A DNA stretch of 44,134 nucleotides. Origin: Wanchaivirus PDP110P2. The stretch is taken from the sequence record OZ035745.1; one strand, written 5' to 3'. Shown here one piece after another: positions 3,847-44,106 of this stretch. The stretch's first letter is position 1, and every line of letters starts with the position of its first letter. The notes under the pieces were generated by a model, which searched no databases, was not told where the DNA came from, and saw nothing but the letters and a program-made list of their open reading frames with translations. Made by a program: the position numbers and the translations under genes.

Positions 3847-4450
3847 GAGCATTGCTAAATCGCTTGTTGACTACTCCGGGGTGATCGACGACTGGGCAGA
3901 AATGGTCGGTCGAAAGATGTTTGCCCAGGTGGAGCGAGAAGAGTGGAATCAGTGGCGCTCTGTTTCGGAAGAAATATCCGCTGGTCTGCGTGACGTGATT
4001 GGTAACACTCCTGTCGGCATGGTGGCGCAAGACATCGTTTATCGGCAGATTCGCTACATGAAGTCTCTGCCATTAGAGGCGGCCGGAAGAATAAGAGAAA
4101 TTCAGGAGCGTGCGATACAGGCTGTCATCCATGGTGAGCGCCCCGATCAGCTTTACGAGATGATCATGCAGTCCGGTGACGTGGCGGCCAGCAGGGCGCG
4201 GATGATAGCCCGCACTGAGATAGGGCGTGCAACCGGCGCATTAACTCAGGCTCGGGCGTTATCCGTTGGCTCTGAGGGTTACTGGTGGCGTATTGAGGGT
4301 GCTGGTACCCGGCCCTCACACCGCAAAATGAAAGATAAATTTGTCAGGTGGGATAACCCGCCAACGCTGGACGGTATGACCGGCCATGCCGGATGCCTCC
4401 CGAACTGCAAATGCTGGGCGGAAGTGCATATCCCGGATCCACAGAAATAA
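3698..4450 (+). CDS. head morphogenesis protein (Mu F / SPP1 gp7-like)
   Basis: ORF frame opens at GTG 3668; ATG 3698 has GAGGA RBS 8 nt upstream; overlaps portal 3' end; position after portal and composition typical of F-like minor head protein; followed by terminator hairpin. Confidence 0.6.
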   Translation: MRRNSGRRLNLKPALRRRSEVQYQKSLLAIVDQINQIVTGSYDGSQASAESIAKSLVDYSGVIDDWAEMVGRKMFAQVEREEWNQWRSVSEEISAGLRDVIGNTPVGMVAQDIVYRQIRYMKSLPLEAAGRIREIQERAIQAVIHGERPDQLYEMIMQSGDVAASRARMIARTEIGRATGALTQARALSVGSEGYWWRIEGAGTRPSHRKMKDKFVRWDNPPTLDGMTGHAGCLPNCKCWAEVHIPDPQK

Positions 4451-4452
4451 CA

Positions 4453-4475
4453 GGCCGCCAGTGGGCGGCCTTTTC
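4453..4475 (+). terminator. rho-independent terminator-like hairpin after head morphogenesis gene
   Basis: ggccgcc-agtg-ggcggcc stem-loop followed by ttttc. Confidence 0.5.
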
Positions 4476-4501
4476 AATGCCCGCAATTCAGCAGGTAACC
4501 C

Positions 4502-5704
4502 ATGAAATATTTCTTTAAAACCCGCCTGGGTAATACCCGCTTTCAACTTGCTGATGGGTCAGTCCTGTTTAAGGACGTCCCGATCGCAAGGACTGGTGAG
4601 CAGGAGTACGACGCCACAGAGCGGCCTGAGCTTGTCCCAAACGACAGAGGGAAAGTCATCGTACGCCGGATGCCAGAAGAGGTGTTCAGCGAGCGAGCCA
4701 TGGCGTCATTCGAAGGAATGGCAGTCACTATCGGCCATCCGCGAGATTTTGACGGGCAGATCATCTTTGTTACCCCTGATAACTGGCGCCAGCTGGCTCA
4801 CGGGCACATCCAGAACGTACGACGTGGCACGGACGATAAAACCGATCTGCTGCTGGCTGATGTCATCGTCAAAACCCCGGAAGCCCTGCAGGCAATTGAT
4901 GATGGTGATGACGAGGTCAGCTGCGGGTACGACGCCGATTACGAACAGATTTCACCTGGTCTCGCAAAGCAATCTGCGATTACCGCTAACCATCTGGCCC
5001 TTGTCCCTAACGGGCGGGCCGGTTTCCGTTGTGCAATAGGGGATTCTATGCCAAGCACTACTAAAAACTGGTTTACCCGGCTCCTGAAGGCCCGTAAAAC
5101 CGGGGACGCTGCCGAAATGGCAAGTCTCATTGATAACCCGCCTGATGATGTCACGGGCGATAACGACGTATCGACCTCTATGACACCTGGCGGAGTGGTC
5201 ATCAACCTTGCGCCGCAAAATCCGCTTCCCGGCCCGGCATTGCCTGGTACCGGCGATGCCGAGGAAGAAATTCCTGCATGGGGTAAGGCGCTGATTGAGG
5301 CGGTGGCCAAACTCACGCCTGCGGCAACTGCTCCTGGAACCGGCGATGCCGAGGACGAAGAGGAGAAAAATGAAGAAGAGGGTAAGGTTACTGGCGACGC
5401 CGCTTACCGTGCCGATCTGATTCAGCCAGGCATCCAGTTGCCAGAGAAGGCGAAGCCGACAGCATTCAAGCGTCAGGTGCTCGCCTCTGCAGATCAATCT
5501 CTGGTGCGCTCTATTGTCGGTGATGCCGATATCAGCAAGCTGAAAAAAGCCACGGTGGATATGGCTTTCACGGCTGTTTCTGAGCTGGCGAAAAACCGCA
5601 ATACCAAAACCGTCGACAGCCTGCAAACGCAGACTGCCACCACTGTTAAAACCATTGCCGGTATGAATCAGGCCGCGCAGGAATTCTGGTCTAAACGAGG
5701 CTAA
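4502..5704 (+). CDS. putative scaffolding / head maturation protein (DUF2213-like)
   Basis: 400-aa ORF between F-like and capsid genes; Pro/Gly/Asp/Glu-rich repeated segment PGTGDAEEE x2; position-based assignment. Confidence 0.45.
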
Positions 5705-5707
5705 CCA

Positions 5708-6202
5708 ATGGGTAATACATTTCTTTACCGGATGCCAGCGGGCATCGCCGGGGCAATTTCTCGTCCGCAGGATCTGACGGTTGAACCTCAGCTGCTGGAC
5801 TCCTCCAACCTTTTCCCCGCTTACGGCCTTGGCGGCAAGATTTCCTCCGGGAAATTTGTGCCAATCGCTGCGAGCGATACAGCGTCGGAGCTGGTGGGCA
5901 TTTATGTTCGTCCGTATCCGACCGCCAGCCAGCCGGATAAAGTCCAGCAGGTAGGCAGCGGTAAAAACTTCACCGGCGATTGCCTGGTACGTGGTTACGT
6001 CACGGTAAACATCGGCGCGGATGCATCCAGCGTTGCTCTGCATGGCCCGGTCTACATGCGAGTGGCCACACCATCCGCCTCAAGCCCTCTCGGCGCGTTC
6101 CTTGCCGCCGCTGATGGCTCGAATACCGTCCAGATCACTAACGCTTACTTCAATGGCCCTGGCGACACCAGCGGCAACATTGAGCTGGCCTTCAATATTT
6201 AA
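5708..6202 (+). CDS. putative capsid-associated (decoration/cement-like) protein
   Basis: 164-aa ORF with GAGG RBS immediately upstream of major capsid gene. Confidence 0.4.
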   Translation: MGNTFLYRMPAGIAGAISRPQDLTVEPQLLDSSNLFPAYGLGGKISSGKFVPIAASDTASELVGIYVRPYPTASQPDKVQQVGSGKNFTGDCLVRGYVTVNIGADASSVALHGPVYMRVATPSASSPLGAFLAAADGSNTVQITNAYFNGPGDTSGNIELAFNI

Positions 6203-6213
6203 GGAAATCGCAA

Positions 6214-7155
6214 ATGCCAATGACATTTGACCAGGCGACAGTCGACGGCACTGGTGCCTTTCTTGTCCATGAGCTGGAGCGTCTCGATCAGACACTGAAT
6301 CTGCCGCTGGTGAATTTCACCTGGTCGCGCGATATCCAGTTGCGTGAAGACGTGTCTATTGCTGATGAGATCAGCTCGTTCACTAACACCACTTTTGCTG
6401 CTGCCGGTACGCCGAATGCTAACGGTAAAAACTGGCTTAGCAAAGCCGCGACCGCGATGGCTGGCCTTAACGTCGACATCGCAAAAACTGGCTTCCCGCT
6501 CACACTGTGGGGTATGGAGCTTGGCTGGACCGTTCCTGAATTGCAGGCAGCTGCGCAGGTTGGTCGCCCGATCGACACGCAGAAGTACGACGGCATGCAG
6601 CTGAAGTGGAACATGGACACGGACGAGCAGGTTTATATCGGCGATTCCGGTCTGAACGTTAAAGGCCTGCTGAACCTGACGCAGGTAACGCCGACCAACG
6701 CCGCGAAGACCTGGGCGACCTCCACCGCTGACGAAATCCGGGCGAGCATTAATGCCGGGTTGAGTGCTGCGTGGGCCAACTCAGCTTACTCCATGGTACC
6801 GACGGACCTGCTGATCCCGCCGGAGCAGTTCTCTCTGCTGGCAAGCACCATCGTATCCAGCGCTGGTAACCAGTCCCTGCTGACCTATCTGGAAACCAAC
6901 ACCATCGCATACCACCAGAACGGGCGTCCTCTGAACATCCGTCCGGTGAAATGGGCGAAAGGTCGTGGCGTGTCGAACTCTGATCGCATGATGTTCTACA
7001 CCAACGACAAGAAATACGTTCGCTTCCCGATGGTTCCGCTGATGAGCGTGCCGATCCAGTATCGCGGCCTGTATCAGCTCGTAACCTATTACGGCAAGCT
7101 GGGTGCAGTAGAGCCGGTTTATCCGGAAACTCTGGCCTACGTCGACGGCATCTAA
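6214..7155 (+). CDS. major capsid protein (putative, DUF2184-like)
   Basis: 313-aa ORF with AAGGA RBS, in canonical capsid position, followed by a stable GNRA-loop hairpin. Confidence 0.6.
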   Translation: MPMTFDQATVDGTGAFLVHELERLDQTLNLPLVNFTWSRDIQLREDVSIADEISSFTNTTFAAAGTPNANGKNWLSKAATAMAGLNVDIAKTGFPLTLWGMELGWTVPELQAAAQVGRPIDTQKYDGMQLKWNMDTDEQVYIGDSGLNVKGLLNLTQVTPTNAAKTWATSTADEIRASINAGLSAAWANSAYSMVPTDLLIPPEQFSLLASTIVSSAGNQSLLTYLETNTIAYHQNGRPLNIRPVKWAKGRGVSNSDRMMFYTNDKKYVRFPMVPLMSVPIQYRGLYQLVTYYGKLGAVEPVYPETLAYVDGI

Positions 7156-7158
7156 CCT

Positions 7159-7179
7159 GCGGCGGCCCGAAAGGGCCGC
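7159..7179 (+). promoter_or_regulatory. stable stem-loop (GAAA tetraloop) downstream of capsid gene, no T-run
   Basis: gcggccc-gaaa-gggccgc perfect 7-bp stem. Confidence 0.45.
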
Positions 7180-7185
7180 TCATGA

Positions 7186-8357
<1,172 letters not shown>

Positions 8358-11304: not shown

Positions 11305-11498
11305 GTCCTGTCCTGGAATCCATGCCAGAAGGTGAGGATTTCCTGATGCGCCCGGTGGATGCCGGGCTTATCCCTTACACCGCCCTGAAAGATGGATCAG
11401 TAGACCTGGCTGATATTGCCCGTATGAATGACTGGCTGGACCTGAAAGCCGATAACGAAAACCGTATAGCGAAATGGAGAGAGGCTAATGAACGCTGA
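10885..11498 (+). CDS. tail assembly chaperone, programmed -1 frameshift fusion product
   Basis: -1 frame is open from the slippery site through 11498 (peptide continues ...KFFERTPRQRDAY...), ending at the tape measure start; classic G/GT-like arrangement. Confidence 0.5.
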
Positions 11499-13404
11499 AA
11501 CGCTCAAGGACTTTCTGATCTCGCTTGGGTTCAAAGTTGATGAGGCTGGCGCCAGAAAATTCGATGCCGTCGTTGCCGGGACAACGCTTAAAGCGATTGA
11601 ACTGGGCGTCAAAGTTGAGGCGGCGGCACTTTCCGTCGTTGCATTCACCGCGAAAATTGCCAGCGGTCTCGACGACCTGTACTGGGCCTCTCAGCGCACA
11701 GGCGCGACGGTGGAGGGCATTAAGCAGATTGGGTATGCGGTTAGTCAGGTTGGCGGCAGTGTCGACGGGGCCCGCGGCTCTCTCGAAAATCTTGCCAGGT
11801 TCATGCGTAACAATCCCGGCGCTGAGGGTTTTCTGAACCGGCTGGGGGTTCAAACGCGTGATGCCAGCGGTAACATGCGGGATATGGCGACGATCTTTAC
11901 CGGCGTCGGCCAGCGTCTTAGCAGCATGCCGTATTACCGCGCGAACCAGTACGCTCAGATGCTGGGTCTGGATGAAAACACCCTGATGGCAATGCGTCGC
12001 GGTATCGGCCAGTTTAGTGGCGAATACACCGCGATGGCGAAGGCGATCGGCTATAACGCTGATGTGGCCGCCGTCAGCTCCAATAAATTCATGACCTCGC
12101 TGCGCTCCTTTGGGCTGATGGCAGGCATGGCGCGGGATAAAATCGGCTCCAGTCTCGCTGATGGACTTGCTGGCTCTCTGGACAGGCTGCGTCGCCAGAT
12201 CCTGGAAAACTTCCCGAAAATTGAAGGCGCTATAACCGGTACCGTGAAAGGCATTCTCTGGGCTGGCGAGATGGTAGGCAGGGTAATTTACCGCCTTATT
12301 CAGCTGGGTCAGAGTATCAGCGACTGGTGGGACTCTCTTGATAAGCAGTCGCAGCAGCTGATCGAACTAATTGGAGCGCTAACCGCAGCGTGGTGGATGC
12401 TCAACCGCGCTATGCTCGCATCGCCGATTACGTGGGTTCTCGGTCTTGCCGCTGCCATAGCTTTGCTATGGGAGGATTACCAGACCTGGAAGGAGGGCGG
12501 TAAGAGCCTCATTGACTGGGGTAAATGGAAGCCTGAAGTAGACGCAGCACTGAAGATGGTCGGTGACCTGAAACAGACTGTCCTCGATCTCGGAAAAGCG
12601 CTGGCAAAGCTGCTCAATATCGACCCTAAATCCTGGTCTTTGAAATGGGATTTCAGCAACTTCATTACCCAGATGGGTGAGTTTAGCAAGATGCTGAGTA
12701 TGATCGGCGACCTGATTAACGCTATCAAGGACGGTCGCTGGTCGGATGCTGCAAGCATTGGCAGGGCTCTTCTCAAACAAGGCAGTAACCAGCCTGATGC
12801 GCTGCCCGGCGTTTCTGACAGTGCCAATAGCGCTGCTGACTGGATAAAGGATAAGACAGGATTTGACCCGCGCAGCATAGGCCGTTTCTTCCGTGGCGAG
12901 GGTAATACGCTTGCAGATCGCAACAATAACCCCGGCAATATTCGGCCAGTAGGCGGTGGTGGCTTTCGTACGTTTGGTTCTGCGCTGGAAGGCTGGGAGG
13001 CCATGAAAAACCAGCTCATGCGGTACTTTACTGGTAAAACGACCGGGCGCCGCCTGCAGACTATCATGGATATCGTCAGCACCTGGGCGCCTGCGGCCGA
13101 TAACAACGATCCTGCCAAATATGCCCGTGATGTTGCTGGCTGGATGGGTGTATCGCCGACGGCAGCATTAAACCTGTCCGACCCCAATACGATGGCTATG
13201 CTCATGCAGTCTATGGCCCGCAAAGAGGGATATTCGAACTGGAATAGCCCACTTGCCCATCAGGCTGCTGGAGCGCAGGTGAATCAGCAAAACACCTACA
13301 ACATCTATGGCGGTAATGCTCAGGAGATTGGGCAGGAAGTCAGTCGCCGCCAGCTTGATGCTAATGCCAGGGTGCTGAGAAATAACCAAACTGGAGCAGG
13401 ATGA
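11488..13404 (+). CDS. tail tape measure protein
   Basis: 638-aa ORF after frameshifted chaperone; Ala/Gly-rich helical N-half and hydrophobic segment (ITWVLGLAAAIALLW). Confidence 0.7.
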   Translation: MNAETLKDFLISLGFKVDEAGARKFDAVVAGTTLKAIELGVKVEAAALSVVAFTAKIASGLDDLYWASQRTGATVEGIKQIGYAVSQVGGSVDGARGSLENLARFMRNNPGAEGFLNRLGVQTRDASGNMRDMATIFTGVGQRLSSMPYYRANQYAQMLGLDENTLMAMRRGIGQFSGEYTAMAKAIGYNADVAAVSSNKFMTSLRSFGLMAGMARDKIGSSLADGLAGSLDRLRRQILENFPKIEGAITGTVKGILWAGEMVGRVIYRLIQLGQSISDWWDSLDKQSQQLIELIGALTAAWWMLNRAMLASPITWVLGLAAAIALLWEDYQTWKEGGKSLIDWGKWKPEVDAALKMVGDLKQTVLDLGKALAKLLNIDPKSWSLKWDFSNFITQMGEFSKMLSMIGDLINAIKDGRWSDAASIGRALLKQGSNQPDALPGVSDSANSAADWIKDKTGFDPRSIGRFFRGEGNTLADRNNNPGNIRPVGGGGFRTFGSALEGWEAMKNQLMRYFTGKTTGRRLQTIMDIVSTWAPAADNNDPAKYARDVAGWMGVSPTAALNLSDPNTMAMLMQSMARKEGYSNWNSPLAHQAAGAQVNQQNTYNIYGGNAQEIGQEVSRRQLDANARVLRNNQTGAG

Positions 13405-14284: not shown

Positions 14285-15352
14285 ATGTCTCAGAACTGGA
14301 TGCGGCACTTCGAATTGCAGTTAGTCGATTCGAAGGGGAACGCTACTGATTTTGGTAGCTTCAAGGTCACTTTTACTATCGACTGGTTTAACCTCAGCAG
14401 CGAAACGCGAGTAGGTACTTTCAAAATCTATAACCTTTCAGCTGATACCGTAAACCGGATCGTCGGTGAGGAATTCTCCCGGATTAGGGTTATCGCTGGA
14501 TACGATGGCATTGCAGCTGACGTTCCCGCCAGTCAGGTAGGCGTAGCCAGGACAGTAAACCCCGATGAAGTCGGGCAGATGGACGGTCGAAATTATGGGC
14601 TGATTTTCGACGGGGAAATCCGGTACACCATCACAGGGAAAGATAACCCCGTTGATAGCTTTGTCCTCATTCAGGCGGCTGATTCTGACCGGGCATTCGC
14701 TACCTCGATCACTGCGCAGACGCTGGCGGCTGGCTATACGGTCTCTGACGTCAATGCAGTGCTAATGAAGGACTTCAACGCTAACGGGGCCACGGAAGGG
14801 AATACCCCTACCATGCCTGCAACGGTGTTTCCTCGCGGCAGGGTGCTTTTTGGTATGACCCGGCATCTGATGGATAACGTCGCCGAGCAATGCAAGGCTG
14901 ACTGGATGTTTGTCGACGGCAAGCGGGAAATGGTGGCGAAAAATGAGTTTGTTCACGAAGCCATTAAACTGAACAGCGCCACCGGCCTTGTAGGTATGCC
15001 TCAGCAGACCATTGGTAGTGGAGTTAACGTCCGCTGCCTGATTAACCCTAACATCCGCGTTAATGGCCTGATCGAGCTGAATCAGGCTTCTGTATTCCGT
15101 ACCGTGCTGGGAAATAACGATATCGCCATGACGCAAGGGCGTATCACTGACCAGAACAACAACGGAAACATCACCATTGAAGGCACAACTGCGCAGCCTG
15201 CCAGTATTGCGACTGACGGCGTTTATATTGTCCGTGGCATTATGTACACTGGCGACACAAGGGGCCAGGCGTGGTACATGGATATGATGTGTGAAGCGCG
15301 TGGCGCGATGGATCTAAAAACTCAATCAGCACTGGAGAGAGGCGCTGGGTGA
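14285..15352 (+). CDS. putative baseplate hub / tail protein
   Basis: 355-aa ORF in tail module following tape measure-proximal genes. Confidence 0.45.
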   Translation: MSQNWMRHFELQLVDSKGNATDFGSFKVTFTIDWFNLSSETRVGTFKIYNLSADTVNRIVGEEFSRIRVIAGYDGIAADVPASQVGVARTVNPDEVGQMDGRNYGLIFDGEIRYTITGKDNPVDSFVLIQAADSDRAFATSITAQTLAAGYTVSDVNAVLMKDFNANGATEGNTPTMPATVFPRGRVLFGMTRHLMDNVAEQCKADWMFVDGKREMVAKNEFVHEAIKLNSATGLVGMPQQTIGSGVNVRCLINPNIRVNGLIELNQASVFRTVLGNNDIAMTQGRITDQNNNGNITIEGTTAQPASIATDGVYIVRGIMYTGDTRGQAWYMDMMCEARGAMDLKTQSALERGAG

Positions 15353-15681
15353 AAAAATTATTGATATTGATCGCTTTATTTTCTGCACCGGCACTTTCTG
15401 CCATCCAATGTGGCGGTTACAAGCTAACTATTAACGATTCTGAGGGTCTGGTAAGAATCAATGGAGAATTGGTTACCAGTCAAAAGGTTAAATATCTCGG
15501 AAAGAAAGGTGACGAATCAAATGCCAAATGGGATATGGGTATAATGCCTTCCCGTGATGGAAATAATTACGGATTTCAATTCATCAAGCGGGATGGCAAA
15601 TCTTGGCTCAATGTTCAACTGCTACAGAACAGTATGGATGCGCCTAAATTGATTGGTTCATATCCATGCAAAACAGTATAA
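15349..15681 (+). CDS. secreted small protein (signal peptide; moron candidate)
   Basis: GTG start overlapping previous stop, GGAGAGAGG RBS; N-terminus MKKLLILIALFSAPALSA is a signal peptide; two Cys; locally AT-rich. Confidence 0.5.
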   Translation: MKKLLILIALFSAPALSAIQCGGYKLTINDSEGLVRINGELVTSQKVKYLGKKGDESNAKWDMGIMPSRDGNNYGFQFIKRDGKSWLNVQLLQNSMDAPKLIGSYPCKTV

Positions 15682-15684
15682 AAA

Positions 15685-15705
15685 AGCCCTGAGTTAATCA
15701 GGGCT
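15685..15705 (-). terminator. bidirectional terminator hairpin between convergent genes
   Basis: agccctga-gttaa-tcagggct flanked by A-run (T-run on - strand). Confidence 0.55.
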
Positions 15706-15711
15706 AAAATC

Positions 15712-16029
15712 TCACTGCTTAAATATTTGCGATAGAACTATGGCGGCAATGATGAAAACTGCAAGCCTCCACCAATGGATCCCTTCCCTTTGAGCCGTTG
15801 GTTCCTGTTCTGAAAATTCCTCTTCCGATGTAGCTTTTCCAGATTTTTTCCCTGGGCCAACGGTGTATGACAAACCGGATCCCGGAATTCCAACGGTGGT
15901 TTTTATTCCTCTTCCACTTATGTTGGTAGTGGCGCCTTTTGGGCCAATCGACGTACTAACGCCACTCTTGCTGATATTGATTGCTAGGCCTGGAGCTATG
16001 CGTATCCGCTTCCTAAATCTGAAGCCCAT
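15712..16029 (-). CDS. DUF4236-like small membrane protein (opposite-strand moron)
   Basis: ATG with AGGAG RBS; N-terminus MGFRFRKRIRIAPGLAINISKSGVSTSIG and C-terminal hydrophobic helix; only minus-strand gene in the tail module, with its own terminator. Confidence 0.55.
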   Translation of the reverse strand: MGFRFRKRIRIAPGLAINISKSGVSTSIGPKGATTNISGRGIKTTVGIPGSGLSYTVGPGKKSGKATSEEEFSEQEPTAQREGIHWWRLAVFIIAAIVLSQIFKQ

Positions 16030-16078
16030 AGGTATCTCCTGTAGTCAAAAATACTAAGTAATTAAATTTTTATTCTAC

Positions 16079-16095
16079 CCCTCACTAAGTGAGGG
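16079..16095. promoter_or_regulatory. perfect 7-bp palindrome hairpin (ccctcac-taa-gtgaggg) in moron promoter region
   Basis: Seen directly; lies between divergent gene starts 16029 (-) and 16117 (+). Confidence 0.4.
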
Positions 16096-16116
16096 TAATC
16101 ATTATCTGGAGAAAAC

Positions 16117-16848
16117 ATGGGCGTATCAAGCCAAACCCGTAGTGGGGCGCTGGCGGAGGTTCTGGCGTCTGAGCGAAAGACGCTTAGCGAGCAAATGCGC
16201 GTAGCACTGCCGGGGATCATCCAGTCATTCGACCCAGAATCTTTGACGGCTGTTGTTCAGCCAGCGATCCGCTACATCGAGCGCGACAACGACGGCAACA
16301 AAAGCACGAAGGATTATCCGCTGCTGGTGGATGTTCCAGTTGTATTCCCCCGCGGGGGCGGCTGTACGCTCACTTTTCCCGTTAGCGAAGGCGATGAGTG
16401 TCTGGTGATATTTGCCGACCGCTGCATTGATTTCTGGTGGCAAAGCGGGGGTGTACAGGAGCCGGTAGACGGGCGCATGCATGATTTATCGGATGCGTTC
16501 TGTATCGTGGGCCCGCAGTCGCAGGCGAAGAAAATCGGCGGCATCAGCACTACGGGAGCGCAGCTGCGTACCGATGATGGTTCGGCTTTCATTGAGGTGG
16601 CCGCCGGAGGGGATATCACTGCCACCACCGCCGGCAGCGCGACTATTAACGCCCCGGAAATCGTCCTTAACGGCAACGTGACGATCAACGGCAACCTGTC
16701 GCAAGGAATGGGTGAGAGAGGAGGCACGGCCACAATGCACGGCCCGGTCACCGTAACCAACGATGTGACAGCAGGCGGTAAGAGCCTGATGACGCACATG
16801 CATGGTGGGGTTGAGCATGGTAACGACAGCACCGGGGGGCCTGAATAA
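16117..16848 (+). CDS. putative baseplate central spike protein (Gp138_N-like)
   Basis: 243-aa ORF; C-terminal repetitive beta-helix-like segment (ITATTAGSATINAPEIVLNGNVTINGNL). Confidence 0.55.
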   Translation: MGVSSQTRSGALAEVLASERKTLSEQMRVALPGIIQSFDPESLTAVVQPAIRYIERDNDGNKSTKDYPLLVDVPVVFPRGGGCTLTFPVSEGDECLVIFADRCIDFWWQSGGVQEPVDGRMHDLSDAFCIVGPQSQAKKIGGISTTGAQLRTDDGSAFIEVAAGGDITATTAGSATINAPEIVLNGNVTINGNLSQGMGERGGTATMHGPVTVTNDVTAGGKSLMTHMHGGVEHGNDSTGGPE

Positions 16849-19167: not shown

Positions 19168-20048
19168 TGGCGACTAACGATTTTAAGCCCTTCGCTACTG
19201 GTAGCGGGGCAAACGTATTATCACAAGCTGATTATGATGCACTGTCGGCCAGAACAACTGGCTTTTTAAGTGGCAAAGCGTCTTCGGCCCAGGTCAACAA
19301 AGCTTTAAGGCAGGCATCAACTATTGCGGCGGTTGTGGCGCAGTTTATTTCGGATAACAGCGGCGATGACACCCTTGATAACGGTAATTTACCTACCTTA
19401 CTGGCTAGTCTCGAAAGCGCCCTCCTCAAGTCCTCCCCTGGGCGGTTACAGAATATCGTTATCTTTACCGCAAATGGGACCTACACCCCATCGCCAGGAA
19501 CCAAACATGTAAAAGTTATTGTTACTGGCGGTGGCGGCGGTGGTGGTGGTTGTCAGGGAACTTCCGGATCTGAATCAGTTTCAGGTGGCGGCGGCGGTGC
19601 TGGTGGTACGGCCATTGGTTATTTTGCTGTAACTGAATCCAGCTATGCAGTCACTGTAGGTGCTGGTGGTTCTGCTGGCGTTGGTGCTGTCCAGGGTGGA
19701 ACAGGCGGAACCTCAATCATTAACGGCATTAGCGGATTGGGCGGAGATGGTGGTCAGAAATCAGGGATCACTACGCTGGCTGGCGGGAAAGGCGGTGTTT
19801 CTATTGGTGGCTCGGTTAACCTTCCCGGAGGTTACGGTACCGATGGGCAAAATGGCTCCCTGATTATCCCCGGCAATGGAGGATCATCATATTGGGGCGG
19901 CGGTGGTCGTGGGGGCGCACGCGGGGGCGTGGCGGGGGATTGTTATGGTTCCGGTGGTGGTGGTGCATATGATGCTGCCATGTCTGGTAACTCCTACAAT
20001 GGCGGACAGGGGAAAGCAGGGATTGTATATATTGAGGAATATTCTTGA
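19167..20048 (+). CDS. tail fibre protein with glycine-rich C-terminal domain (paralog 1)
   Basis: ATG 19167 overlaps previous TAA with GGGGAGAG RBS (frame opens at 19149); poly-Gly block GGGGGGGGCQG; C-terminal domain similar to gene 23829..24860. Confidence 0.6.
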   Translation: MATNDFKPFATGSGANVLSQADYDALSARTTGFLSGKASSAQVNKALRQASTIAAVVAQFISDNSGDDTLDNGNLPTLLASLESALLKSSPGRLQNIVIFTANGTYTPSPGTKHVKVIVTGGGGGGGGCQGTSGSESVSGGGGGAGGTAIGYFAVTESSYAVTVGAGGSAGVGAVQGGTGGTSIINGISGLGGDGGQKSGITTLAGGKGGVSIGGSVNLPGGYGTDGQNGSLIIPGNGGSSYWGGGGRGGARGGVAGDCYGSGGGGAYDAAMSGNSYNGGQGKAGIVYIEEYS

Positions 20049-20245
20049 TGGTAAGCAAGTATGCAGTCCTTAAAGAAGGCGTGGTAGAAAACATTATTGT
20101 TGCTGATGATAATTACTCTCCTGATGATTTCGAAGTCGTAAAATATAGTGACGAAACATTTTGCCAGCCAGGCATGTTGTACAATAAAGAGGATGGTTTA
20201 TTTTATGATGATAAACAATCATCAAGAATAAATAACATTATCTAA
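20048..20245 (+). CDS. small hypothetical protein (AT-rich; possible fibre-associated chaperone)
   Basis: ATG 20048 overlapping fibre stop; AT-rich; followed by terminator. Confidence 0.4.
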   Translation: MVSKYAVLKEGVVENIIVADDNYSPDDFEVVKYSDETFCQPGMLYNKEDGLFYDDKQSSRINNII

Positions 20246-20265
20246 ATATCTATACATTACCAATC

Positions 20266-20288
20266 AACCGGCTTATGCCGGTTTTTTA
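20266..20288 (+). terminator. rho-independent terminator
   Basis: accggc-ttat-gccggt hairpin followed by tttttt. Confidence 0.6.
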
Positions 20289-20299
20289 TTGGGGCGACC

Positions 20300-22873
20300 A
20301 TGAGTGAATACGATACCGGCAATTCTGTGCCGTCTGCATCAATGCCTGATGCATGGGATAATATGCAGTCTATTGATAAGTTTGTTAATAGCAGCGATGA
20401 AACCATTACAACACGTACAGGCGAAAAGTTAGATACTTTGCATGGCGTTAATGTTAAGGCGGACAACCAGCTAACGCAGCAGCAAGCAGACTTTGAAGCC
20501 TCGCAAGAAGAAAGGGATGCTGTAGTTGAGGAAACCAGGCAGCACCTGATTCCACTCAGCCGCCAGTATATGACACTGGCCGCGGCACAGGCAGATATTG
20601 CTAATATCCCCGAGGGGAGCACTACGTATTACCGAAGCCCTGACGATAGCGCTCTTGCGATTGAGGTTATTAACACTTCAGGAACGCTGCAGCCTACTGG
20701 ACGAAAAATGCCATCCGCAATGCCAATGGGTTACCAGTCTGCTACAGCTGTGAGTAGCGGTGCGGCTAATACCATTGCTATCACTATCCCCGGATTATTA
20801 GTGGATGGCAGTTTGATTTATTTCCTGTCTCCTATTTTGAATACGGCGGCTGTTAGCGTTACCGTGACAGATGCCAGGGGGAACTCGGTTACTCGGGCAA
20901 TACAGAAACAAAATAATGCAGCTTTAGTTGGGAATGAGTTGCTTCTCAATCAGCCCGCACTGATGGAATTCCGCACTGGGACTGCTAACAATTTTGTCCT
21001 TGTGGCATCCGGCCCAGTAGCTGCTGAACTTGCGTCAAGAATTTCCACGCTTGAATTAAATAGCGTAGCGTTATTGTCTGGCGTTGCTAATACTGCGGAC
21101 GCCTACACCGCGTCAGCGTCAGCGATACCAGGCCTGGTTGCCTCTGACCGCGTTTTCCTTTTCACTCCGAGTGCGACGAACACGACACGGACGCCGACCT
21201 TATCCGTGAATGGCGGCACTGCGCGCCAGATCAAACAGGCGAATGGTACCAACGTCGCAGCGGGAGACCTGGTCTCTGGCTACCCTTATTTATTAAAATT
21301 CAATTTTGCATCGGCTGACTTTCGTATGCTCACATACCCAGCGGACCGGACGCGTCTGCTCAGCGGCCAGCAGAAGGCCACCGTAACCAGTGACGCAACA
21401 AGCCCGAACGCTATATCTTTAACAATCCCGGGCCTTATCGCGGACGGCACACAAATCACATTCGAGCCAGCTGTCACCAATACCGGGGCGGTGACGCTGC
21501 TAATCACCAACATGTATGGCGACACCGTGACTCGCACCCTGATGAAAGGGGCTAACACTCCTCTCGTCGGTGGTGAACTGAAGTACGCCATGCCGGTTTC
21601 TATCATGTTCAGGGGGGCTCCACAGAACAACTTTAAGCTCCTATATGCTGGCGACCCTACCACGGATATACAGACCCTATCGAACGACGTTACGACGCTC
21701 AAGGGGTCGCTGACAGACCCTTATGCTGCTCTGGCGGATAAACTCGTGGGCACCGGGGTATTATCAGACCAGTCACCATTCGGTACTATAACTTGGTCCG
21801 CGGGGGTTAAGAGCGTCACTAAGCGGCAGATCATTTGTACGTCTGTCGGGTCTTCTGTTGGCGTTGGGGCCGGCTCTACTGGCGGTGGTGCGGCAGGTGC
21901 CGCTTATGCACCGAACACACTGTTCGTCAACGCCTTGAAGGAAGAGCTTAAACAGTACGGCGAGTTTGACGTCATCGATGACAACCAGTGCATACCAACT
22001 CAGGCGATTCAGCAGTTCGCTGCCCAGCTAGCGAATTCGCCTTATTCAACCTCCGACTTTGTTTTGATTGTAGGGGGGATGAATGATGCGCCAGTTGGTA
22101 ACTTCAACATGGGGCGCACATTCCCCGGTCAACAAACGTCTCTCGAGTCGCTGGTAGACTTGTGTCTGGCACGAGGAGCGATTCCAATCATTTGCACTAC
22201 TCCACATCATAATGTGGAAATGTCTCAGACGTACCCCACAATCCCCGGTGGTAACCCGCTGTTCTGGCCGTTCAGGACATATAATGTCACAAGTACATAT
22301 GTCTTCGACGCCGTTGCAAATACCATCACGCAGAGTAACTTTGCTAACCCGAATTATGGCGGCAATATTCTGAAGCCGGGGCATACTCTGCGCGTAGAAA
22401 GTGGAGACAATATCGGCAACTATACTATCACGGCCATTTCCTCTGACCGGAATACCATAACCGTCCAAGAGACAATCCCGGTAAGTGGAAGCTACTCGAC
22501 AACGGTCAGACACTTTAACCTGCAGTCCATCGCTGAGGATATTCTTTACCCTGCACCGTCGGTTTCCTTTGTAACAAAAGACTGGTCCGGTAGCGGCGTT
22601 AAGGTACAGGGAGATGTGCGGTTCGAAATGGTGAATAATATGCAAAGGGTCGTCGCACGCAAAAAAGGCGCGTTCCTCGCAGACTGTGAAAAGTCGTTCT
22701 TTAAGTATGGTGTAGAGGTTGGTGGTTACTCGTCGGTATATAACGTCCCAGCTGGAAACTACAATCACATGAACGATAACGGGTACACAGTAACTTTCGA
22801 CTACACGCTGAAAGTCGCAGCAAGGAAGATTGCCAATCTCATATTCGGAGATAAATATTACTCTGCAGCATAA
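20300..22873 (+). CDS. large tail fibre/tailspike protein with triplicated domain and SGNH/GDSL-hydrolase-like domain
   Basis: 857-aa ORF; three internally similar segments of about 95 aa (aa ~145-445); downstream region has SGNH-like blocks (VGSSVG, GGMND, TPHH). Confidence 0.6.
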   Translation: MSEYDTGNSVPSASMPDAWDNMQSIDKFVNSSDETITTRTGEKLDTLHGVNVKADNQLTQQQADFEASQEERDAVVEETRQHLIPLSRQYMTLAAAQADIANIPEGSTTYYRSPDDSALAIEVINTSGTLQPTGRKMPSAMPMGYQSATAVSSGAANTIAITIPGLLVDGSLIYFLSPILNTAAVSVTVTDARGNSVTRAIQKQNNAALVGNELLLNQPALMEFRTGTANNFVLVASGPVAAELASRISTLELNSVALLSGVANTADAYTASASAIPGLVASDRVFLFTPSATNTTRTPTLSVNGGTARQIKQANGTNVAAGDLVSGYPYLLKFNFASADFRMLTYPADRTRLLSGQQKATVTSDATSPNAISLTIPGLIADGTQITFEPAVTNTGAVTLLITNMYGDTVTRTLMKGANTPLVGGELKYAMPVSIMFRGAPQNNFKLLYAGDPTTDIQTLSNDVTTLKGSLTDPYAALADKLVGTGVLSDQSPFGTITWSAGVKSVTKRQIICTSVGSSVGVGAGSTGGGAAGAAYAPNTLFVNALKEELKQYGEFDVIDDNQCIPTQAIQQFAAQLANSPYSTSDFVLIVGGMNDAPVGNFNMGRTFPGQQTSLESLVDLCLARGAIPIICTTPHHNVEMSQTYPTIPGGNPLFWPFRTYNVTSTYVFDAVANTITQSNFANPNYGGNILKPGHTLRVESGDNIGNYTITAISSDRNTITVQETIPVSGSYSTTVRHFNLQSIAEDILYPAPSVSFVTKDWSGSGVKVQGDVRFEMVNNMQRVVARKKGAFLADCEKSFFKYGVEVGGYSSVYNVPAGNYNHMNDNGYTVTFDYTLKVAARKIANLIFGDKYYSAA

Positions 22874-25015: not shown

Positions 25016-25250
25016 GCTCTGTTACAGGTCACTAATACCATCTAAGTGGTTGATTCATAGTGACTGGATATGTTGTGTTTTGTAGTATTATGCAGTCTAT
25101 TATTTAGACTAAATCTTTCATAACATATTGATATTTACAGTGTTTTCTGTTTATTGTTCAGCTTTTTTATACTAAGTTGGCATTATAAAAAAGCATTGCT
25201 TATCAATTTGTTGCAACTAACAGGTCACTATCAGTCAAAATAAAACCATT
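25010..25250. other. attP: attP (lambda type), core GCTTTTTTATACTAA at 25161-25175
   Basis: Core plus flanking AT-rich arms closely match lambda attP as recalled; lies directly downstream of int. Confidence 0.8.
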
Positions 25251-26319
25251 ATTTGATTTCAATTTTGTCCCACTCCCTGCCTCTGTCATCACGATACTGT
25301 GATGCCATGGTGTCCGACTTATGCCCGAGAAGATGTTGAGCAAACTTATCGCTTATCTGCTTCTCATAGAGTCTTGCAGACAAACTGCGCAACTCGTGAA
25401 AGGTAGGCGGATCCCCTTCGAAGGAAAGACCTGATGCTTTTCGTGCGCGCATAAAATACCTTGATACTGTGCCGGATGAAAGCGGTTCACGACGAGTAGA
25501 TGCAATTATGGTTTCTCCGCCAAGAATCTTTTTGCATTTATCAAGTGTTTCCTTCATTGATATCCCGAGAGCATCAACATGCAATGCTGTTGGGATGGCA
25601 ATTTTTACGCCTGTTTTGCTTTGCTCGACATAAAGATATCCATCTACGATATCAGACCACTTCATTTCGCATAAATCACCAACTCGCTGCCCGGTAACAA
25701 CAGCCAGTTCCATTGCAAGTCTTAGCCAACATGGTGATGATTCTGCTGCTTGATAAATTTTTAGGTATTCGTCAGCTGTAAGTCTTGATCTCCTTACCTC
25801 TGATTTTGCAGCGCGAGTGGCTGCGACCGGGTTTGTTGTTATATGGCCTTCAGCTATAGCCTCTCGGAATGCATCGCTCAGTGTTGATCTGATTAACTTG
25901 GCTGATGCCGCCTTGCCCTCGTCTATGTATCCATTGAGCATTGCCGCAATTTCTTTTGTGGTGATGTCTTCAAGTGGAGCATCAGGCAGACCCCTCCTTA
26001 TTGCTTTAATTTTGCTCATGTAATTTATGAGTGTCTTCTGCTTGATTCCTCTGCTGGCCAGGATTTTTTCGTAGCGATCAAGCCATGAATGTAACGTAAC
26101 GGAATTATCACTGTTGATTCTCGCTGTCAGAGGCTTGTGTTTGTGTCCTGAAAATAACTCAATGTTGGCCTGTATAGCTTCAGTGATTGCGATTCGCCTG
26201 TCTCGGCCTAATCCAAACTCTTTACCCGTCCTTGGGTCCCTGTAGCAGTAATATCCATTGTTTCTTATATAAAGGTTAGGTGGTAAATCCCGGCGCTCAT
26301 GACTTCGCCTTCTTCCCAT
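25249..26319 (-). CDS. int: integrase (tyrosine recombinase, lambda Int)
   Basis: 356-aa translation matches lambda Int as recalled (MGRRRSHERRDLPPNLYIRNNGYYCYRDPRTGKEFGLG...). Confidence 0.95.
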   Translation of the reverse strand: MGRRRSHERRDLPPNLYIRNNGYYCYRDPRTGKEFGLGRDRRIAITEAIQANIELFSGHKHKPLTARINSDNSVTLHSWLDRYEKILASRGIKQKTLINYMSKIKAIRRGLPDAPLEDITTKEIAAMLNGYIDEGKAASAKLIRSTLSDAFREAIAEGHITTNPVAATRAAKSEVRRSRLTADEYLKIYQAAESSPCWLRLAMELAVVTGQRVGDLCEMKWSDIVDGYLYVEQSKTGVKIAIPTALHVDALGISMKETLDKCKKILGGETIIASTRREPLSSGTVSRYFMRARKASGLSFEGDPPTFHELRSLSARLYEKQISDKFAQHLLGHKSDTMASQYRDDRGREWDKIEIK

Positions 26320-41193: not shown

Positions 41194-41842
41194 TGGCAGC
41201 AAATACCGAAATATTTGGGTAGTTGGCGATCTGCACGGATGCTACACGAACCTGATGAAAAAACTGGAGACGATAGGATTCGACACCAAAAAAGACCTGC
41301 TTATCTCGGTTGGCGATTTGGTTGATCGCGGTACAGAGAACGTCGAATGCCTGGAATTAATCACATTCCCCTCGTTCAGAGCTGTACGTGGAAACCATGA
41401 GCAAATGATGATTGATGGCTTATCAGAGCGTGGAAACGTCAATCACTGGCTGTTTAATGGCGGTGGCTGGTTCTTTAATCTCGATTACGACAAAGAAATT
41501 CTGGCTAAAGCTCTTGCCCATAAAGCAGATGAACTTCCGTTAATCATTGAACTGGTGAGTAAAGGTAAAAAATATGTCATCTGCCACGCCGATTATCCTT
41601 GTGACGAATACGAATTTGGAAAGCCAGTTGATTATCAGCAGGTAATCTGGAACCGCGAACGAATCAGCAACTCACAAGACGGGGTCGTGAAAGAAATCAA
41701 AGGCGCGGACACGTTCATCTTTGGTCATACGCCAGCAGTGAAACCACTCAAATTTGCCAACCAGATGTATATCGATACTGGGGCAGTGTTCTGCGGAAAT
41801 CTCACATTGATTCAGGTACAGGGAGAAGGCGCATGGGAATAA
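41171..41842 (+). CDS. Ser/Thr protein phosphatase (NinI-like, calcineurin fold)
   Basis: From ATG 41171: motifs GDLHGC, GDLVDRG, GNHE. Confidence 0.85.
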
Positions 41843-42351
41843 GAGAATTAAACCTCACCAAAGAGCAGCACGAGTGGCTGAATGGCTGGCTTGAACTGTG
41901 GGGGGCATGGGTTTATTCAGGTCGTCTGGAAAAGCGCATGAGCAGCGTAATAGCTAAGTTCATGGAGAGCGTAGAGCCGGGAAGAGTTATGACAAGGCCA
42001 ATGTGTAATGATGATGATGGAATGTTGATTTCTCAGGTCGTCGATTCCGTCATGTACATTGACAAGAAAGCCTTTGGCATCCTCCTCAGCTACTACGCTC
42101 ATGGTTCATCTAAGCGAGCAATTGCATCCTACTATCACGCGACTGCAAAGCCACGCAAGATGTGTGGACGTGGTGGCGAGGGATGGAGAAAACCTTCACT
42201 GGCAACCTGTAGAAACGAAATTGACGACATCCTGAAAGCGTCGTTATTTGTTTTGTACCAACCAATGCAAAATGCTTTCAAAATGCGTAAACGTGTTGAG
42301 AAAGTTAAGCATGTTGCTGTTAAAAGCCTTGACATGCAATTAGCCATTTAG
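41833..42351 (+). CDS. Q: late antiterminator Q (non-lambda type)
   Basis: 172-aa ORF at end of nin region, upstream of terminator and lysis genes; Cys-containing; assignment by position. Confidence 0.6.
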
Positions 42352-42858: not shown

Positions 42859-43182
42859 ATGAAGATGCCAGAAAAACATGACCTGTTAGCCGCCATTCTC
42901 GCGGCAAAGGAACAAGGCATCGGGGCAATCCTTGCGTTTGCAATGGCGTACCTTCGCGGCAGATATAATGGCGGTGCGTTTACAAAAACAGTAATCGACG
43001 CAACGATGTGCGCCATTATCGCCTGGTTCATTCGTGACCTTCTCGACTTCGCCGGACTAAGTAGCAATCTCGCTTATATAACGAGCGTGTTCATCGGCTA
43101 CATCGGTACTGACTCGATTGGTTCGCTTATCAAACGCTTCGCTGCTAAAAAAGCCGGAATAGAAGATGGTGGAAATCAATAA
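42859..43182 (+). CDS. S: holin S (class I, dual-start MKM)
   Basis: 107-aa translation matches lambda S as recalled; upstream sequence taagacATGaagATG also lambda-like. Confidence 0.95.
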
Positions 43183-43642
43183 TCAACGTAAGGCGTTCCT
43201 CGATATGCTGGCGTGGTCAGAGGGAACTGATAACGGACGTCAGAAAACCAGAAATCATGGTTATGACGTCATTGTTGGCGGAGAGCTATTCACTGATTAC
43301 TCCGATCACCCTCGCAAACTTGTCACGCTAAACCCCAAACTCAAATCAACAGCCGCCGGACGCTACCAGCTTCTTTCCCGTTGGTGGGATGCATACCGCA
43401 AGCAGCTTGGCCTGAAAGACTTCTCTCCGAAAAGCCAGGACGCAGTGGCACTGCAACAGATTAAAGAGCGTGGCGCTTTACCGATGATTGACCGCGGTGA
43501 TATTCGTCAGGCAATCGACCGTTGCAGCAATATCTGGGCTTCACTGCCGGGCGCTGGTTATGGCCAGTTCGAGCATAAGGCTGACAACCTGATTGCAAAA
43601 TTCAAAGAGGCTGGCGGAACGGTCAGAGAGATTGAGGTATGA
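43166..43642 (+). CDS. R: endolysin R (lytic transglycosylase)
   Basis: 158-aa translation matches lambda R as recalled ([35 protein letters not shown]...). Confidence 0.95.
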
Positions 43643-44106
43643 GCAGAGTAACCGCGATTATCTCAGCTCTGGTTATCTGCATCATCGTTTGCCTGTCATG
43701 GGCTGTTAATCATTACCGTGATAACGCCATCGCCTACAAAGAGCAGCGCGATAACAAGGCCAGTGAACTGGAGAAGGTGAACGCCACCATTACTGACATG
43801 CAGCAGCGCCAGCGTGATGCTGATGCACTCGATGCTAAATACACGAAGGAGTTAGCCGATGCAAAAGCTGAAAATGATGCTCTGCAGCGCAAGCTTGATA
43901 ATGGTGGTCGGGTGCTCGTCAAAGGCAAGTGTCCAGTGTCAGCCGCAACCCAAACCACCGGCGCCGCCAGCATGGGCGATGATGCCACCGTCGAACTCTC
44001 TGCAGTTGCTGGACGAAACGTTCTTGGTATCCGATCCGGAATCGTCAGCGACCAAACAGCCCTGAGAGCGCTGCAGGAATACATCACCACGCAGTGCCTG
44101 AAGTAA
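43639..44106 (+). CDS. Rz: i-spanin Rz
   Basis: N-terminal TM helix and coiled coil; lambda Rz-like; overlaps R stop. Confidence 0.9.
43859..44065 (+). CDS. Rz1: o-spanin Rz1 (embedded in Rz, +1 frame)
   Basis: Embedded ORF with lipobox-like VVGC and Pro-rich tail, resembling lambda Rz1. Confidence 0.75.

Follow-up and report, generated by a model that had tools for sequence, protein, structure and literature searches.

We describe here the junction between the baseplate hub gene and the baseplate spike gene in a stretch of 44,134 nucleotides (nt) of Wanchaivirus PDP110P2 (sequence record OZ035745.1), which at its full length is hereafter called the window. Two small genes lie at this junction, a plus-strand gene for an exported protein, which we call sec, and a minus-strand gene for a protein of the DUF4236 family. 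The original prediction, made from the sequence alone, had read the two as one accessory (moron) island inside the tail module. We compared about 150 related loci in two surveys, one seeded on sec and one on the hub, and the comparison indicates that recombination has made the junction a hot spot in which two layers can be told apart, namely a resident sec gene and a slot between sec and spike in which the cargo is swappable.

The hub/spike junction and its two genes

The features of the junction are as follows.

14285-15352, plus strand: baseplate hub gene, 355 amino acids (aa), conserved left flank; phrog_196 'baseplate hub', E=2.5e-83
15349-15681, plus strand: sec, open reading frame (ORF) with a GTG start for a 110-aa exported protein
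15674-16132: swappable cassette, i.e., the transcription unit of DUF4236, its limits set by the breakpoints of homology to relatives with other cargo
15685-15705, minus strand: intrinsic terminator of the DUF4236 gene, 8-bp stem and 5-nt loop, T-run at 15684-15680
15712-16029, minus strand: DUF4236 gene, ATG start, 105 aa; Pfam PF14020, 75.3 bits (cutoff 27), E=5.4e-21
16036-16039, minus strand: Shine-Dalgarno GGAG read from the sequence, 6 nt upstream of the DUF4236 ATG
16079-16095: perfect palindrome CCCTCACT-A-AGTGAGGG, exact and unique in the window
16101-16129, minus strand: sigma-70-like promoter TTGATA-17-GATAAT, 10 of 12 matches in a consensus scan, predicted start at about 16094-16096
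16117-16848, plus strand: baseplate spike gene, 243 aa, gpV-like, conserved right flank; PF18352 at E=3.8e-44, GpV Apex motif PF18946

Both ORFs are found exactly where they had been predicted. The claim that the DUF4236 gene is the only minus-strand gene of the structural block also holds, as in the annotated and near-identical phage RCIP0034 it is the only minus-strand coding sequence (CDS) among the structural genes 1-30. The tail genes are ordered as tape measure, Dit-like, Pam3_gp18-like plug, hub, sec, DUF4236 gene, gpV-like spike, sheath-initiator-like and Baseplate_J, and the match of the hub to Pfam E217_GP41 (24.3 bits) is slightly under the gathering cutoff. The GTG start codon of sec overlaps the stop codon of the hub (GTGA), and because of this overlap sec is presumably expressed with the late operon. 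The local AT-richness that had been noted is borne out by a GC window analysis: the stretch 15349-16100 has the lowest GC content of the structural block and is its only 752-nt window with a GC of 0.42 or less. The flanks reach 0.52 (hub) and 0.59 (spike), against 0.47 for the DUF4236 gene and 0.39 for sec, in which the GC at third codon positions (GC3) is 0.36.

Regulatory signals of the DUF4236 unit

The DUF4236 gene has its own ribosome-binding site (RBS), as predicted, and the CAGGAG motif is kept in the cassettes of three related loci (L165, L167 and L171). On its other side, the hairpin at 15685-15705 sits just 3' of the sec stop codon and has a folding energy of -14.7 kcal/mol, with z-scores of -4.4 for the plus and -3.0 for the minus strand. 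It had been taken for a bidirectional terminator. The hairpin is real, but its bidirectionality has to be abandoned: a consensus scan calls a terminator on the minus strand only, where the T-run lies and the tail reads TTTTTATACT, whereas the plus strand continues with AAAATCT. As for sec, it ends in a 3' hairpin only, with no U-tract on the plus strand, and the consensus scan found no promoter-like site on the plus strand 5' of it.

The promoter-like site of the minus strand overlaps the RBS and the start codon of the spike gene, which lie on the opposite strand, and its predicted start falls at the edge of the palindrome. The same hexamers with the same spacing are found in the window and in the cassettes of L167 and L171, whose DUF4236 proteins are 69% and 75% identical, respectively. 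By comparison, 121 of the 122 loci that lack DUF4236 score at most 7 of 12 in the equivalent region.

The palindrome had been assigned to the upstream region of the DUF4236 gene. It is indeed exact and unique, but its placement can be corrected, as it occupies the position at which most relatives carry a plus-strand terminator 5' of the spike RBS, just 3' of the minus-strand promoter, and here it has no T-run. Read from the minus strand, the palindrome would fold into a hairpin located at the 5' end of the DUF4236 mRNA or close to it, and its position fits both the terminator of the relatives and the 5' end of the predicted moron transcript. A weaker homologue, CTCAC-ATA-GTGAG, is present in L171. 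An operator role was also considered and is not supported, the window containing no second copy within 3 mismatches beyond chance-level matches.

At the right edge of the slot, a plus-strand terminator-like hairpin is found at most 90 nt 5' of the spike start in at least 102 of the 139 loci with a usable spike upstream region, a count based on a strict perfect-stem criterion, many of the remaining loci having imperfect versions. This terminator typically reads ACCCGCC...GGCGGGTTTTTT. The lineage of the window is the main exception, with the palindrome followed by TAATCATTATC, and the reverse promoter draws its GATAAT -10 hexamer from the complement of TAATCATTATC. The plus-strand terminator is retained in the other types of DUF4236 cassette, those of E. 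coli (96 aa), Hafnia (107 aa) and Serratia (99 aa). They must use a promoter located between this terminator and the DUF4236 gene.

The junction across relatives

In the sec-seeded survey, viral contigs were scanned, yielding 366 sec relatives, and 80 loci were examined. The hub-seeded survey was independent and took one genome per species, with hub identities of 41-92%; it covered 80 loci, of which 76 were informative. The sec gene lies directly 3' of the hub in all 80 sec-seeded viral loci. In the hub-seeded genomes, the arrangements are the following.

63 of 76 loci (83%): sec follows the hub; 58 of these also have the spike in the locus
8 of 76 loci: hub abutting spike, with neither sec nor cargo, in distant relatives
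5 of 76 loci: cargo present, no sec

The sec gene is thus absent from 13 of the 76. The distance between sec and spike ranges from 62 to 1873 bp in the sec-seeded viral loci. Five of the slots are empty there, and further empty slots, in which sec abuts the spike, are found in the hub-seeded loci. The non-empty slots of the sec-seeded loci hold about 38 unrelated cargo clusters, and pooling both surveys brings the number to 73. In 58 relatives, the cargo is on average 10 GC points below the hub, and sec is 5.5 below.

Several of these cargoes are recognizable. They include PD-Lambda-1 (PADLOC, E=4.9e-85), a superinfection-immunity protein of the T4 Imm family (Imm_superinfect, PF14373), a nuclease with an Mrr_cat domain anchored by a transmembrane (TM) segment, and Fic/Doc toxins, the Phd-like antitoxin partners of Doc being recognized by eye only. 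Most of the slot cargo families carry no annotation. The slot has the features of a phage-borne hot spot of antiviral systems, i.e., a fixed site between core genes and a diverse cargo that includes known defence systems.

The commonest cargo is a two-gene cassette (clusters K0 and K1, in 27 and 24 loci respectively; e.g., L066 at about 4400-5642 and L032 at 4369-5600). It encodes a protein of about 250-266 aa and a protein of about 130-142 aa with a RAYYGMYHSALR motif that looks HEPN-like by eye. Neither protein matches Pfam or PADLOC, and the two are a candidate toxin/antitoxin or defence pair. In Apirhabdus apintestini (L160, about 6000-7800), ORFs that by eye resemble an IS21-type transposase and its helper lie between sec and spike. 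Two loci call for a remark about the records themselves. In Escherichia phage vB_EcoM-606R2 (L004, 3473-4537), the hub gene is interrupted by an in-frame stop and split into two CDSs in the annotation, so that either the sequence is in error or the baseplate gene is defective. The record of L094 (CACSKA010000001.1), which bears the title Chryseobacterium sp. 18061, carries a prophage with an enterobacterial-type hub-sec-cargo-spike order whose hub is 76% identical to that of the window, and this suggests that the record is mislabelled or the assembly contaminated.

The place of sec in this picture differs from that originally proposed. Its constant position after the hub in both surveys, its overlap with the hub stop codon and the lack of a promoter-like site of its own speak against its being part of a recent island. 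As judged from these comparisons, sec is a long-resident accessory gene and no fresh insert. It is accessory only in a deeper sense, as shown by the eight distant relatives in which the hub abuts the spike and by its lower average GC. It had been proposed that universal conservation in the same position among relatives would argue against the island. Strictly, neither gene is universally conserved there; sec nearly is.

Limits and history of the cassette

The edges of the cassette are sharp. Compared with L018, in which hub and sec are about 97% identical to those of the window, similarity stops at 15673 and restarts at 16133. Compared with Mulock, it stops at 15304 and also restarts at 16133, so that in this case sec and cargo were exchanged together. 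The Pluralibacter prophage L171, on the other hand, is collinear with the window across hub, sec, DUF4236 gene and spike at 72% nucleotide identity, from which it follows that the DUF4236 gene is an old resident that co-diverged with its neighbours.

For the DUF4236 gene compared with cassettes in other genera, the synonymous distance (dS) is saturated and the nonsynonymous distance (dN) is 0.17-0.55, the values against the cassettes of E. coli, Hafnia and Serratia being 0.23-0.55. These values indicate purifying selection on the DUF4236 gene, a statement that is only qualitative given the saturation of synonymous sites. For sec, synonymous sites are saturated or nearly so, with dN of 0.34-0.71, and dN/dS is 0.12-0.16 in the two computable pairs.

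We can ask to what extent each gene looks like a moron in the sense of Juhala and Hendrix, as summarized in PMC3594210. Extra DNA between genes that are adjacent in relatives is what we find for DUF4236, since the slot is empty or holds other cargo elsewhere, and sec is missing from the 13 hub-seeded genomes mentioned above. The base composition of both genes deviates from that of their flanks. A terminator of its own is found for the DUF4236 gene and, in the window, is lacking for sec. The moron reading survives for the DUF4236 gene, with its variable or empty slot, its reverse-oriented signals (a strong promoter-like site, a Shine-Dalgarno and an intrinsic terminator) and defence or exclusion genes among the other occupants of the slot, and only loosely for sec. 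From this sequence evidence, we think it probable that the DUF4236 unit is a self-contained 'reverse moron' of about 410 nt on the minus strand, and this degree of confidence applies to the two-layer explanation of the junction.

The sec and DUF4236 proteins

The sec protein had been predicted to carry a signal peptide, and the reading of its N-terminus by eye, without SignalP, agrees with this: it shows MKK, a hydrophobic core and ALS|A, corresponding to a predicted cleavable signal peptide at about residues 1-18. In an alignment of 43 sequences, the N-terminus is hydrophobic but varies, and after it a QC motif is invariant, as are two cysteines (C21 and C107), which likely form one disulfide. 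The mature domain of about 90 aa is predicted to fold as an 8-stranded beta-barrel. The family comprises two subtypes, marked by DGNNYGF and NQPGxW, and variant forms of the domain occur in relatives (L107 5599-6489, L126 5575-6441, L131 6135-6962, L156 1889-2849). In some relatives, it makes up the C-terminus of a lipoprotein of about 290 aa whose lipobox reads VTGC or VAGC, and others carry two diverged copies of it in tandem. No Pfam family matches sec. The protein would most likely be a periplasmic binder or inhibitor, e.g., an exclusion or immunity-type protein. It was compared with the PliC/MliC periplasmic lysozyme inhibitors and similar small beta-barrel inhibitor or immunity proteins of the periplasm, but it gives no sequence match to the PliC/MliC family, which is marked by conserved inhibitory motifs, and avidins and unrelated barrels score equally or higher, so that the similarity is one of generic fold only.

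The second product had been called a DUF4236-like membrane protein, and both halves of this description are upheld. The PF14020 match is above the gathering score and sits at the extreme N-terminus (residues 3-56, model positions 1-55 of 55). In an AlphaFold2 (AF2) model, residues 1-56 form a basic six-stranded beta-meander, which is followed by a polar disordered linker and by a C-terminal hydrophobic helix (residues 85-103) with about 3 residues beyond it. This architecture is common to 43 aligned DUF4236 homologues. It suggests a tail-anchored inner-membrane protein whose DUF4236 domain would be cytoplasmic. The N-in topology is deduced from three elements: fusions in the order DUF4236-TM-SH3_3, a fusion with FtsK_gamma without evident TM segment, and the basic N-terminus. 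Among longer members, 24 of 64 carry SH3_3 domains, located after the TM segment in the sequences inspected, and the FtsK_gamma fusion (P0060) has no evident TM segment in its sequence, as read by eye. The family counts 12,856 representatives at E<=1e-3 (50% identity clustering), and almost every one of the best 150 has the domain beginning with its first residue. Our search of the literature found a single paper that mentions DUF4236, and it gives nothing on function. Neither protein matched NCBIfam, a PDB sequence search with the family profiles gave nothing significant, and three cargo proteins from relatives gave nothing above the curated cutoffs of PADLOC and NCBIfam.

DUF4236 genes elsewhere

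Homologues of the DUF4236 gene (46-75% protein identity) occupy the same slot in E. coli, Pluralibacter, Hafnia and Serratia fonticola, and they are always antisense to the tail operon. The gene is also found in other tail types. In a lambda-like prophage of Leclercia, it lies antisense between the tape-measure gene and gpM, and in Serratia marcescens it lies after gpD of a P2-like prophage. In the latter (L174), a TTGCA repeat of 10.6 copies with 97% matches (3911-3963) ends about 40 nt 5' of the DUF4236 gene and looks like a slipped-strand phase-variation switch for it. A survey of the neighbourhoods covered the best 80 of the 303 viral contigs that encode DUF4236. In these best 80, the hub/spike slot accounts for about 45 of the genes and the lambda-like site for about 14, and the remaining ones mostly neighbour integrase, CI/Cro-type regulator or terminase genes. 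We had to reject a specificity for tail modules, as integrase, repressor and helix-turn-helix (HTH) neighbours are also common in viral contigs. In these neighbourhoods, the association is thus with accessory-gene positions of temperate phages in general, tail modules being prominent among them.

Comparison with known systems

The closest precedent is gp15 of HK97, a moron of the tail operon whose inner-membrane product excludes superinfecting phage (PMC3594210). As in HK97, the DUF4236 gene is a small extra gene between conserved tail genes, with a deviant GC content, its own promoter (here a predicted one), its own terminator, and a membrane-inserted product. The two differ in their site and orientation: gp15 is a forward gene of a siphophage, flanked by the genes for the tail chaperone and the tape measure, whereas the DUF4236 gene is reversed between the hub and spike of a myophage. 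Likewise, the hydrophobic stretch of gp15 is N-terminal, while the DUF4236 protein has a C-terminal anchor and an N-terminal beta-domain, and exclusion, demonstrated for gp15, is for the DUF4236 protein predicted from context alone. The HK97 record also annotates a 'reverse moron', gp23, on the opposite strand of the tail operon. We found no homology of sec or the DUF4236 protein to gp15, gp22 or gp23 of HK97; for gp15, BLASTP gave E=0.85 over 23 residues, and there was no hidden Markov model (HMM) match at E<=10.

T4 Sp and T5 Llp belong to the small membrane, periplasmic or lipoprotein products with which phages block the entry of a superinfecting phage at the envelope. Cor of phi80, N15 and HK022 is likewise an envelope-level exclusion protein (PMC3594210). 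Together with T4 Imm, they resemble the present case as small proteins of the envelope, and a T4 Imm-family gene (PF14373) is found in this very slot in some relatives. Yet neither sec nor the DUF4236 protein matches the families of Imm, Sp, Llp or Cor in Pfam, NCBIfam or PADLOC, so that the analogy is one of location and size only.

At the level of the slot, the comparison is with the P2-like phages and P4-like satellites, which are reported to carry hot spots of antiviral systems (Rousset et al. 2022, PMC9122126). The likeness lies in a fixed position between core genes, in a content swapped among relatives and in the presence of known defence systems. The hub/spike slot differs in that it belongs to another phage lineage and lies within the baseplate gene cluster, and in that its cargo consists mostly of single small genes, many of them for exported or membrane proteins, with a minority of recognizable defence genes. 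The antisense, independently transcribed accessory locus of the ST64B transcriptome paper could not be placed in this slot, and ST64B is not among the phage records that carry sec.

A model for the DUF4236 unit and its alternatives

The unit would be read in the order promoter (16129-16101), 5' hairpin, Shine-Dalgarno, gene and terminator (15705-15685). In a lysogen, the promoter would fire away from the silent spike gene, and the transcript would end at 15685. We infer this expression from the repressed prophage because the unit is oriented away from the late operon and has its own signals. After induction, the Q-modified late transcription would run head-on through the unit and tend to shut it off. 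Some 5' stem-loops, that of ompA for instance, are known to stabilize mRNA, and the palindrome, as a 5'-terminal hairpin, could do the same for the DUF4236 mRNA. The product would then insert into the inner membrane by its C-terminal helix, exposing its basic amphipathic beta-sheet domain on the cytoplasmic face. It may there guard the lysogen against superinfecting phages at a membrane step, e.g., DNA entry, or by abortive membrane damage. This function is proposed by analogy, because of the HK97 gp15 precedent, the HK97 'reverse moron', and the presence of Imm and PD-Lambda-1 in the same slot of relatives, and we hold it tentatively.

Several points weigh against this account. The promoter scan gave one site in 1.8 kb, when 2.1 are expected by chance. 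The argument for the promoter is therefore one of position and conservation, and part of the site coincides with the RBS and start codon of the spike gene, which would be constrained in any case. No PADLOC-DB v2 model matched either protein, even at E<=1. A domain that faces the cytoplasm is not the obvious topology for blocking DNA that enters from outside. As to sec, it may not be expressed in lysogens at all, because it lacks both a promoter-like site and a proper terminator. The label of a defence hot spot is itself a generalization from a minority, as most cargo families have no assigned role. Finally, the account of the junction as a two-layer hot spot that holds a reverse moron is built on sequence. 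With these reservations, we regard it as likely, whereas exclusion, the most likely role in our view, is a tentative proposal.

A rival explanation is that the DUF4236 protein is a factor of lysogenic conversion or phage physiology and no anti-phage protein, concerned for example with the envelope, lysis timing or prophage induction, and that the slot is simply a permissive site, open to any gene that is neutral or useful. The lack of defence annotation for most of the slot cargo and the absence of a PADLOC match go in this direction, and so does the family itself, which is very large and found also outside obvious prophage contexts, and in which the commonest fusions, those to extracytoplasmic SH3 domains, suggest a general envelope-linked role. 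However, the gene recurs at classic moron positions in three tail architectures, as well as near immunity regions, and it has its slot in common with PD-Lambda-1, Imm and Doc. We see this explanation as possible, at rather less than an even chance. That sec and the DUF4236 protein form one two-component system, with a periplasmic part and a membrane-anchored cytoplasmic part acquired jointly as an island, is in our view very unlikely. The two genes are adjacent, convergent and both AT-rich, they have the hairpin at 15685-15705 in common, and DUF4236 adjoins sec in about 45 of the best 80 DUF4236-bearing viral loci. But sec is found beside dozens of other cargoes and beside empty slots, and DUF4236 is found in the absence of sec, both in prophages of the lambda-like and P2-like types and next to integrases; in L018, a sec that is 96% identical stands beside an entirely different cargo, with the breakpoint at the 3' end of sec. 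A functional pair is improbable because each gene widely occurs without the other, and their pairing is explained by the position of the slot rather than by co-inheritance.

It could also be argued that one or both genes are ordinary tail-assembly or structural baseplate components, the 'island' being a compositional quirk. The place of sec directly after the hub in 83% of the species-level relatives, overlapping its stop codon, and its dN/dS of 0.12-0.16 in the two computable pairs would fit such a role. Tails, though, are assembled in the cytoplasm, while the signal peptide, the cysteine pair and the lipoprotein forms of sec point to periplasmic export. Besides, in eight relatives the hub abuts the spike without sec and five have cargo but no sec, and the DUF4236 gene is absent from most relatives and antisense to the operon. 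We consider this reading very unlikely. A bolder version of the exclusion account can be formulated as well: the tail-anchored DUF4236 proteins would be a new, widespread family of single-gene prophage exclusion or defence proteins acting from the cytoplasmic face, and the hub/spike junction would be an unmined hot spot of about 70 largely anti-phage cargo families, bordered by a sec gene with an exclusion or immunity role of its own. Taken in full, this is a speculative proposal that we judge unlikely to hold in all its parts.

The phage and the rest of its tail module

The window has the gene order of a prophage and corresponds to a temperate phage. Its structural half is 87-98% identical to those of the Klebsiella phages RCIP0034, RCIP0098 and GZ7, and the phage is a temperate, Q-antiterminated myophage of the SEN34/Mulock type, of Klebsiella. 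The genes that define this setting are the following.

649-2157: large terminase (TerL)
25249-26319, minus strand: lambda-type integrase
34821-35552, minus strand: S24/HTH CI-like repressor
35619-35891: Cro
41833-42351: Q-type antiterminator, PF06530, E=1e-25
42859-44106: holin and Rz

Two further observations concern the tail module. The tape-measure protein (11488-13404) has no Pfam match and is without the SLT domain (PF01464) recorded in the relatives L165, L167 and L172. A second AT-rich spot (20047-20292, GC of about 0.38) lies directly 5' of the gene for an 857-aa GDSL-like tail protein (start at 20300). Within this spot, a small ORF (20047-20245, about 66 aa) precedes a hairpin, AACCGGCTTATGCCGGTTTTTT, at about 20266-20290, that looks like a clean terminator of the plus strand. 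The spot may be another moron-like or exchange junction.

Significance

Morons and phage-borne defence hot spots are already established, and the architecture described here is itself expected. What is new is the specific site, together with two families that are uncharacterised, DUF4236 and sec. In a common group of Enterobacterales prophages, the hub/sec/spike junction forms a slot that has sharp limits and is easily recognized. As it holds at least 73 cargo families, only a handful of which are annotated, it is a ready source of candidate exclusion or defence genes. For the DUF4236 family, the recurrence of short membrane-anchored members as antisense, self-contained units in three tail types provides a testable first hypothesis.

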